NCBI GenBank assembly: GCA_021513715.1
Contig: CP084167.1
Coordinates: forward strand, 1,632,001 to 1,696,000
Length of the DNA stretch: 64,000 nucleotides
Direction of reading: 5' to 3'
DNA from: Candidatus Heimdallarchaeum endolithica
GTDB lineage: Archaea > Asgardarchaeota > Heimdallarchaeia > Heimdallarchaeales > Heimdallarchaeaceae
In this document: one piece after another, positions 53,212 through 56,037 of the stretch
How positions within the stretch are numbered: position 1 is the stretch's first letter
Layout: every line of letters starts with the position of its first letter
Program-made: the position numbers and the translations under genes
The notes under the pieces: generated by a model
Databases searched by the model: none
Seen by the model: the letters and a program-made list of their open reading frames with translations, nothing else
Told to the model about the DNA's origin: nothing

Positions 53212-55379
53212 ACACTCAAAAAAAACTAATATTTAAAAAAATTTGCTGTAACCAAAAGTAATTTCTAATTGATTATTGATTCATGTTTTGTACAATAGAT
53301 TAATCACTGTTGGGCAGGGTATTACAAAAACATTTACTTATATAATTAAAATTGAGGTAAATGATTATGTTGAATTGAAAGTGAAACTTTCCTCTACTAG
53401 GGATTAAAATGGAATGCAGTTGCAAAGTTACATACGGAATCGTTTACTCTTGTACAACTAAATTATATATCAGAGACACTACACAAGACCTTGAATTCTT
53501 TATTGAATCTGATGATATACTGACATCCTCGTTTATCTATGACCCAATCTTCTGGTTTAGTCCAACGGAATAAAACAGCAGAGGTGATATAAATTAAGAA
53601 GAGATTAGAGTTCTACATTTTTTTCTTTTTTTTATTATTTGCTTATAGTAGCAGCATGAACTTGAGCATAATTAATAGTCGTTATAGAATTGAAGGCGAC
53701 AATTATAATGAATTAAAACATGAAAGGTCTTCATTTATCACAGACAACAATTTTAGGGATAGTAATTATAAAGAAAAAAAGAAACAAAACTTAAATAATA
53801 ACCAGCTGAATAAAAAAATAAAATTAGAAATAAGTTTTGATATTGTTTTTGATAAAGATTGGATAGTTAATGAATCAATTACAGTTGTAGGAAAAACTAT
53901 ATTACTAAAAGGAAATCTAATTGTAAACTCAACAGGGAATATCACAATAGAGAATTCTATTTTAATATTTAACTCTTCGTGGATAGTTAATAATGGAAAT
54001 CTTGTAGAAGATGCTTTACAGATTAGAATTCTTGGAGGTAAAACTATTTTTATTAATACTACAATATCAGTTTTAGTTCCATTTGTAGAATTAAGTTATA
54101 ATCAAATACGTAATAATTACTTTACGATAAGCGCAGAAAAATCTTCCCAGTTGTACTTTATAAACAGCGAATTGAAACATTTAGGAATTATAGATAACAT
54201 AAATAGTGGGATAAATGTTAACCAAATAAGTGAGTTAAAACTAGAAAATTGTAATATTAACGCATTATGGGGAATTCTTTATGCTAATAATACAGACAGG
54301 GTTGTAATCAATAATTGCAAATTGAACTCAAGATTGAGGGGTGATATGAGATTTGGAACAAATTATACCATGGTAACTCTAAATGGTGGAATTGAACATA
54401 TAATTACACACAACAATTTCTTTAGAAATGAGGAAACAAATTCTATAGAATATTCAGAAGAAAAAATAGACAGGCTTGTTATCTTGAATTCGAAGAACAG
54501 TATTATTTCAGAAAACACATTTAAACAAGCAAGATCTTATGATAATTCCTTTGGTCTAAATGTTAGAAACTGCACTTCAACGATAATTAATAACAATAAA
54601 GGGCCATCAATGCACATGCATTTAAAAGGTTCTAGAAATATTACAATAACACAAAATCACTTTGGGCAACTAAAGGTTCATAATACCTACGAATTGTTAC
54701 TTAAATTCAACATAGCTGAAAATCTGGAACTCGCTAACTGTTCTTATATAAACGTCAATTACAATATTTTTAATGCTACAAAGGAAAGAATCTATGATAT
54801 AGGATCTTGCGTTTTTCTAATGGGTTCAAATGAATATATTAATATTTCATGTAACATTAATGCAGCACCTATTTTGGAAAGTTCATTTTATACAATAACA
54901 GCAGAAATAAAGAACAGTTTCTTTTATATGAATAATCAAGTTGGCCCCATATATATAATTGATTATCCAGATTTCTATGAGAAAGTGTTTAATTTCTCAA
55001 TAGAAAATAAAAGAGAAATAGTAATAGAATACCCAAAACTATCAGTAAATCAATATTACAGTTATAACAATCAAGGTAATTTCTATTCAGCCGATATACA
55101 AGCAAGTTTAGAAAATATATTAGAAGATTTTAACAACGATGGTATAGGAGATGCATCTTTTCCAGTATCGTCCGTTCCTATAATAATGGATGAAAAGCCA
55201 TTAATGTTCCCCATTACATTTAATAATAATTTCGATCAAAAAGCCCCAACTCTTAATCATAAAAATTATTTTCCAGGTGGCGATAATTCTATTTATGATA
55301 CCATCTATGCTAGTGTAACTGACAATTTTATGTTGGCAACAATCGTAGTAGCTTATGATTTAGGTTCATCTGGTTCATG

Positions 55380-55749
55380 AGTTGAAATTTTACGTAATTT
55401 CTTCAGGACTCTCCCCAACCAATCAACAAACTTAGCGAAAGTTGTGAAGACTAGCTTAAGAGAACATGAAAGACACAGTCTTAATTAAGTTCTCTAAGGG
55501 GTTCATCTCCTTACCCCGGGCACTCATAACTCCCAAAGGGAAGACCGGGTGTCGTAGGAATGAAACCTACGTCTTTAAGCATCTAGCTCAAGACACTACA
55601 TAAATGAGAATTAAATATATAAAGATAGCTGAAAAGTTGTTACACTCCCCAATATTTTGTATGTTTTATTTATGCAAATGTGTTTCTGGTTGTTATTGGT
55701 CTAATAACTCCACAAACTAAAAATTTAGTTTTTTACGTAAAAAAGTATC
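55380..55749. mobile_element. Non-autonomous insertion element with symmetric ends and a structured non-coding core
   Basis: TCATG duplicated at 55375-55379 and 55750-55754; imperfect inverted ends CATGAG-N6-TTTTACGTAA; no transposase ORF. Confidence 0.85.
55455..55596 (-). ncRNA. Candidate structured RNA inside the insertion element
   Basis: Four adjacent stem-loops; ~45% GC by hand count over 55451-55600; two mismatches resolve as G-U on the minus strand; TTTATATA box ~20 nt upstream on the minus strand. Confidence 0.5.
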
Positions 55750-56037
55750 TCATGGACTTTTAAGACTATGATAAAGGACGAATTTACAGGAGAATTTATT
55801 GCAAAAATTCCTAAATTGACACAAGGGATAAATAAATATTATTTTATTGTATGTGATATTTTTGGGAACAAATTGAAAAGCGAAATTTATACTTATAAGG
55901 TTCCGACCATTACTTCACAGACTTCATGGCAAACCTTGAATTCCTTTCTAGGAGTATTACTTTTAATTTTTTATCTGAAAAAAACTAAACTCAAAAGGGC
56001 TCAAAAATGTTAAACATTTTATTTTTTTCTCTTAGAC

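Follow-up and report, generated by a model that had tools for sequence, protein, structure and literature searches.

A gene in the window (the whole 64,000-nt stretch of the Candidatus Heimdallarchaeum endolithica chromosome analysed here) is split by about 375 bp of DNA with palindromic ends and a strongly folding core, which raises the question of what this insert is, what its RNA might do, and by which enzyme it was moved. We approached this in the complete genome (G000, one contig, 3,326,783 bp) and in that of a sister species (G001, 3,081,793 bp). Re-reading the sequence bore out every coordinate that the preliminary description had assigned to the insert, including the TCATG duplication (55375-55379 and 55750-55754), the ACGT palindromes at 55384-55401 and 55729-55744, each 12 bp from CATG, four stems in the core, and the TATA box (Table 1). 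Exact excision of 375 bp restores an ORF that reads through GSSGS-W-TFKT. The description of this gene as encoding a surface protein is plausible in view of a C-terminal hydrophobic stretch, but the product has no Pfam match. The G001 ortholog has a single TCATG within an uninterrupted ORF, in a region 98% identical between the two genomes, indicating that the insertion is real and probably recent. Elsewhere in the window we noted a 110-bp MITE (56039-56147 and the 49114 region; about 19 copies) whose terminal inverted repeat (TIR), TAGTACTTCCG, matches an ISH3-like element of G000, an RtcB-like 991-aa ORF (42187-45162) with an apparent intein and homing endonuclease, judged by sequence reading only, and an ABC-transporter substrate-binding gene (49409-51353) apparently split into three overlapping ORFs.

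Table 1. Features of the insert and its surroundings, in window coordinates
Feature	Position	Strand	Remark
Interrupted host gene	53656..56013	+	660 aa once the insert is removed; intact in G001
Element body	55379..55751	-	373 bp between AT cores (375 with one core)
Element ends in TnpB orientation	left end 55751, right end 55379	-	From the empty site in G001 and 18 copies
Left-end TIR with TTTTTTACGTAAAAAA palindrome	55729..55751	-	Motif also on 1.85-kb TnpB-only elements
Right-end TIR	55379..55401	-	Also serves as last RNA hairpin
AT core at left-end junction	55752..55753		In families and empty sites alike, the junctions share no more than AT
Archaeal TATA box, putative former tnpB promoter	55616..55623	-	20 nt before the predicted omegaRNA start
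omegaRNA scaffold	55377..55595	-	219 nt; begins in last tnpB codons (V-L-S...); full-length match to CM R1
Pseudoknot 5' strand AUGAGU	55522..55527	-	Pairs with last six scaffold nt
Pseudoknot 3' strand ACUCAU	55377..55382	-	Terminates in the right-end AT core
Predicted guide	55357..55376	-	About 20 nt of host flank; predicted from OMEGA architecture
Host target motif CCAT, predicted TAM	55752..55755	-	Consensus VCAT; TAM role putative

The proposal that the insert is a non-autonomous mobile element is supported by multiple copies, by precise empty sites found reciprocally in G000 and G001, and by the lack of a gene inside it (no ORF of 80 aa or more). BLAST recovered 18 full copies in G000, 16 close and 2 divergent, at unrelated sites and with identities of up to 99%, besides several fragments; more copies are present in G001. 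The ends are imperfect TIRs (25 nt, 76%), both ends in the element family read AT-R-N8-TTTTACGTAA inward, and the end that functions as the right one lies on the left in window coordinates. Where the preliminary description had left the core as AT, CATG or TCATG, the comparison reduces it to AT: a G precedes AT at some empty sites, the right end of a sister family reads G-AT, and in 5 of 18 copies the two junctions disagree in the base that follows AT (the 4-mer matches in the other 13), so that CATG is not strictly duplicated. The AT may represent a 2-bp crossover core or a 2-bp duplication, the sequence being compatible with either. Several copies, of this element or of the TnpB486 element described below, are truncated at the 5' end (G000:1375194-1375285, 1184271-1184363, 1817087, 1007398 and 231436) and start at an internal AT with host CAT preceding it, a pattern that use of cryptic AT sites by the enzyme would produce.

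The identity of the insert follows from its RNA, and we estimate a probability of about 85% that it is an omegaRNA-only derivative of a TnpB transposon, a PATE-like standalone cassette. Among the options raised earlier, the TnpB omegaRNA was thus the right one, and the statement that the element could not be matched to a known family was mistaken. A covariance model (CM R1) built from 19 TnpB right ends of G002 type, none from G000 or G001, aligned end to end to the minus strand of the insert (55595-55377) with 32.1 bits and an E-value of 4.2e-9 (such E-values being rough), and over the whole of G000 it returned exactly the 18 full copies. Local alignment to the right ends of relatives scored 51 for the minus strand, compared with 28 for the plus strand and 21±3 for shuffled sequences. 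Segments homologous to the insert follow tnpB in G002, G006, G014, G018, G024 and G026, the motifs that follow the genes of TnpB486 homologues in other genera of the family match its minus strand, and the start of its scaffold translates as V-L-S, the conserved C-terminus of TnpB. The previously suggested orientation of the predicted RNA, on the minus strand and running from the TATA box toward the element end, is upheld by homology; folding alone cannot assign the strand, because both strands fold far above chance (z-scores of -5.6 and -5.9). The recommended Rfam check gave no match near the gathering score, and a scan for sigma-70 promoters and terminators gave nothing informative.

Structural conservation was found at several levels. 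The pseudoknot, a feature described as common to TnpB omegaRNAs (10.1101/2023.11.20.567912), keeps its pairing in all 26 distinct motif sets, in which the 5' strand was located by motif. Its counterpart in the TnpB486 family is AUGAUU/AAUCAU, a G-C to U-A replacement that amounts to one compensatory event; two copies have a U-G pair, and RNAalifold run on other genomes recovered five of the six pairs unprompted. Helix P4 likewise shows two-sided changes among families with pairing maintained. In the covariation check suggested earlier, support came from the comparison across families, for both the pseudoknot and P4, and was modest within the element family, in which 97% of cells are paired and just 4 pairs show a two-sided change. 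In divergent copies the RNA part is 76-90% identical as against 42-84% for the left-end interior, and conservation of the scaffold stops sharply at CAT, with 18 different flanks beyond.

The same evidence bears on the earlier analogy with the bridge and seek RNAs of IS110/IS1111, under which the RNA would guide a recombinase to its target. Subterminal inverted repeats, a short core and a 9-nt internal match to the flank of the window copy (D11) would fit such an RNA, but a DEDD transposase (PF01548) was not found in G000, (C)AT(R) is all that the targets have in common, and the 9-nt match applies to this copy alone, the interior being constant while flanks vary. As the RNA is homologous to tnpB right ends, this interpretation is effectively refuted and we regard it as very improbable.

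Longer versions with the same ends, anticipated earlier, do exist in the form of TnpB-only elements, none of which, in G000, G001 or G002, contains a transposase ORF. About 13 elements of 1.85 kb are bounded by the same end motif, their sole product being a 486-aa TnpB (TnpB486) with a PF07282 match, the RuvC-I and RuvC-III aspartates and a zinc finger. Its catalytic set (D242/E402/D436) is intact, with a glycine at the usual RuvC-II position and the glutamate shifted (E402), and its predicted structure matches those of Cas12f, TnpB and Fanzor2. Two further TnpB-only families, of 504 aa (TnpB504) and 445-452 aa (TnpB445), have like ends with a GTAC palindrome; the latter protein is only 26% identical to TnpB486 (266 residues). 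Another gene-less family derives from TnpB445 elements; its members (G000:699974-700327 and 396405-396759, with at least six others) measure about 355 bp, have an AT core, a GTAC-type TIR and TCAT targets, and in their 3' part share 71-76% identity with the right end of TnpB445 elements. One TnpB445 element of G001 (2602597-2604370; L431) is inserted inside a copy of the 375-bp element, exactly at the pseudoknot strand ACTCAT, that is, at a TCAT target. Several g4 genomes (L154, L155, L156, L167 and L168) have a TnpB element at a single fixed position immediately behind a HerA-like ATPase gene; its decayed left end suggests an old, immobile copy.

How a gene-less element could have arisen is indicated by the putative promoter. 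The 20-nt spacing between the TATA box and the omegaRNA start is kept in most copies; parallel gene-less copies in two other genera, of about 355 bp (G002, G006, G016, G017 and G026), have the same junction. Parental elements show the same distance, 20 nt, from the TATA box to the point where the tnpB leader presumably starts, and this equal spacing implies that deletion of tnpB set the promoter directly on the omegaRNA. The parent would be a TnpB-only transposon family of Heimdallarchaeaceae, in which an internal deletion would have brought the omegaRNA's 5' end up to the promoter of tnpB, with the joint falling at the predicted start site or close to it, and would have left a stand-alone guide-RNA cassette between two mobile ends.

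The scaffold of the insert is of the G002/g4 subtype, and a tnpB of this subtype is absent from G000, where the best tblastn match (about 45% over the full length) is to the TnpB486 family. The direct parent is therefore gone, and any nuclease must be the more distant TnpB486 or TnpB504. A resident TnpB may not accept the scaffold, since CM R1 does not match TnpB486 right ends. Both the missing cognate gene and the differences between the RNA of TnpB486 and that of the insert, in P4 and in the pseudoknot, would suit an orphan relic, an RNA that guides nothing since the loss of its TnpB, on an element that spread through its retained ends and owes its target bias to the transposase. This explanation, which we consider rather unlikely, leaves unaccounted for the greater conservation of the RNA part than of the left-end interior, the retained TATA spacing, and a one-sided target bias that a symmetric enzyme acting on inverted ends does not predict. 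Working use of the RNA by a TnpB in trans is, on balance, the reading we lean toward.

The bias itself was examined on both sides of the insertions. On the left-end side CAT is present in 18 of 18 copies, and T at -4 occurs in one of 18 compared with a background of 35% (p 0.004, for copies that are not independent draws); at TnpB486 and TnpB504 sites, T precedes CAT in none of 14. At the right end of the insert itself, TCAT precedes the predicted guide. The reverse arrangement is seen in TnpB445 elements, whose right end reads TGAT and whose insertions are at TCAT in 10 of 11 cases, as opposed to one of 18 for the 375-bp element (Fisher p 6e-6, the copies being not fully independent). The asymmetry extends to individual positions, with C at -3 in 18 of 18 against G at +1 in 12 of 18 (p about 0.02), and T at -4 in one of 18 against A at +2 in eight of 18 (p about 0.02). 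Some G001 insertions sit at GAT (empty sites in G000), and the TAM is accordingly not strictly CAT. We infer from these patterns that VCAT may be a TAM that leaves filled copies uncut, for which ISXfa1 offers a described parallel (GGG versus CGG; 10.1101/2023.08.09.552727); a polar transposase could yield the same bias.

If the RNA does work with a TnpB, minus-strand transcription would proceed through the right end into host DNA, and the host part would become the guide. A TnpB encoded elsewhere, most likely TnpB486 in view of its same ends and same target bias, or else TnpB504, would load the omegaRNA and cut empty sites carrying VCAT and the guide sequence, and repair from a filled copy would then retain the element; the filled copy would escape cutting because its own end reads TCAT. 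Movement would take place in trans, by some enzyme acting at the 2-bp AT core between the inverted ends. The guide of each copy matches just its own site in G000, which fits self-maintenance and not host regulation or defence.

Identification of that enzyme was attempted from several directions. End-motif searches of G000, G001 and G002 returned only TnpB-only or gene-less elements, viral contigs gave no end-pattern matches, the pattern was too short for the wider genome contigs, where matches were due to chance, and the metagenome loci found were TnpB matches. AT-core ends were seen only in Heimdallarchaeaceae, and relatives of TnpB445 elsewhere have IS605-type ends. Two short serine recombinases (about 240-270 aa, with Resolvase and Recombinase domains and an intact catalytic motif; L056:3731-4438 and L023:1351-2154) are conserved in 26 of 28 family genomes and present in only one of the genomes searched outside the family. 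The 28 recombinase loci are syntenic chromosomal host genes, with no element ends or tnpB nearby. On co-distribution these recombinases are candidate mobilisers only, and we give movement by a serine recombinase in trans slightly less than an even chance. Just one tyrosine recombinase was found. IS607 TnpA was considered and rejected, there being no NF033518 match over the cut-off in G000 or G001, and in relatives the IS607 elements differ in their ends and carry TnpBs that are unrelated. Several g4 genomes have, upstream of TnpB, a 900-aa gene that scored weakly as Cas1 in G000; it too was set aside, having proved to be the HerA-like host gene at the fixed insertion site.

A DDE transposase that duplicates AT would be compatible with the presence of TIRs and with AT as a possible duplication, even though the 4-mer matches in only part of the copies. 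None of the four DDE families of G000 (IS5-, IS481-, IS6- and ISH3-like) shares the ends, however, their duplications are longer or different, and an IS630-type DDE_3 was not found in G000, so we hold this route to be unlikely. Less probable still is an ordinary IS200/IS605 PATE moved by the single Y1 transposase of G000. A divergent copy of the element does lie 7 bp upstream of this tnpA (G000:925509-925884; L021:3509-3884), but it is an insertion into a separate IS605 whose GC-rich hairpin ends are unlike those of the insert; moreover, IS200/IS605 elements have no TIRs (PMC13565253), and the target tetranucleotide of the insert is not fixed. That copy may affect expression of the Y1 tnpA. 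An enzyme other than a serine recombinase, DDE or Y1 transposase we consider improbable, somewhat more so than a DDE transposase.

Comparison with known systems places the insert among guide-only TnpB elements. Reports exist both of standalone omegaRNAs in OMEGA systems (PMC10691335) and of PATE-like elements that encode an omegaRNA (Meers et al., PMC10055086), and the insert resembles the two in lacking a gene, in having its omegaRNA at the right end with a flank-derived guide, and in depending on an effector and a transposase in trans. It carries no protein-coding gene, as in PATEs, but where PATEs have IS200/IS605 hairpin ends shared with a Y1 partner, it has TIRs and an AT core. In-trans function has been demonstrated for other systems and is a prediction for the insert. 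The IS607 elements ISCbo IStron (10.1101/2023.11.20.567912) and ISXfa1 (10.1101/2023.08.09.552727) are similar in the dinucleotide shared by their junctions, a TAM that abuts the core, a right-end motif unlike the TAM, a C-terminally shifted RuvC-II glutamate in TnpB, and a pseudoknot from nexus to 3' end. They differ in their GG core and lack of inverted repeats, as opposed to an AT core between inverted-repeat ends, and in their MerR-HTH serine transposase, which was not found in G000 or G001. For DDE-associated TnpBs and TIR-bounded non-autonomous Fanzor elements, the partner is often not found (PMC10691335; 10.1101/2023.08.09.552727); these share with the present elements a lone TnpB-family gene between TIRs, although no DDE gene was linked to these ends at the loci examined. 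Finally, the Asgard aCas1-TnpB loci (PMC10691335) are related in that the TnpB486 clade reaches Thorarchaeota-like genomes, whose TnpB loci combine a GTTCACTCA motif with a large, divergent gene that looks weakly Cas1-like over one stretch; unlike the insert's family, these loci have no clear TIR, and the large gene has no detectable homologue in G000. At five such loci (L161, L162, L164, L163 and L412; Thorarchaeota-like genomes and G038), TnpB486 homologues are arranged head to head with a conserved 1600-1700-aa gene that has no Pfam matches and, in one case, the weak Cas1-like stretch; a short structured segment lies upstream of tnpB. These are possibly the published aCas1-TnpB loci.

Guide-only TnpB elements are thus already known, and the RNA of the insert is explained by them; by its inverted-repeat ends and AT core, however, the insert matches neither of the two classical families of TnpB transposons. 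The literature searched contained no description of these Heimdallarchaeum elements; a report on Ca. Heimdallarchaeum genomes noted repeats and never mentioned TnpB (PMC8813620). For experiment, the locus amounts to a testable kit, comprising a natural promoter-trimmed omegaRNA with a defined 5' end, a predicted TAM, candidate nucleases whose catalytic residues are intact, and, as an internal control, a system of opposite predicted TAM. Much more speculatively, Heimdallarchaeaceae might harbour an undescribed transposon class, bounded by inverted ends with an AT core, no member of which encodes a transposase. Such a class would rely on a host-resident mobiliser (e.g. one of the two short serine recombinases), would have captured two distant TnpB lineages and repeatedly spawned guide-only, promoter-fused copies, and its VCAT/TCAT target split would let each of the two systems spare its own ends. 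The interest lies in the vehicle: TnpB elements that have TIRs and an AT core, and that were active recently in a closed genome offering no fitting transposase, point to a mobiliser that they do not themselves encode, in an archaeal group near eukaryotes and with an architecture resembling that of TIR-bounded Fanzor elements.
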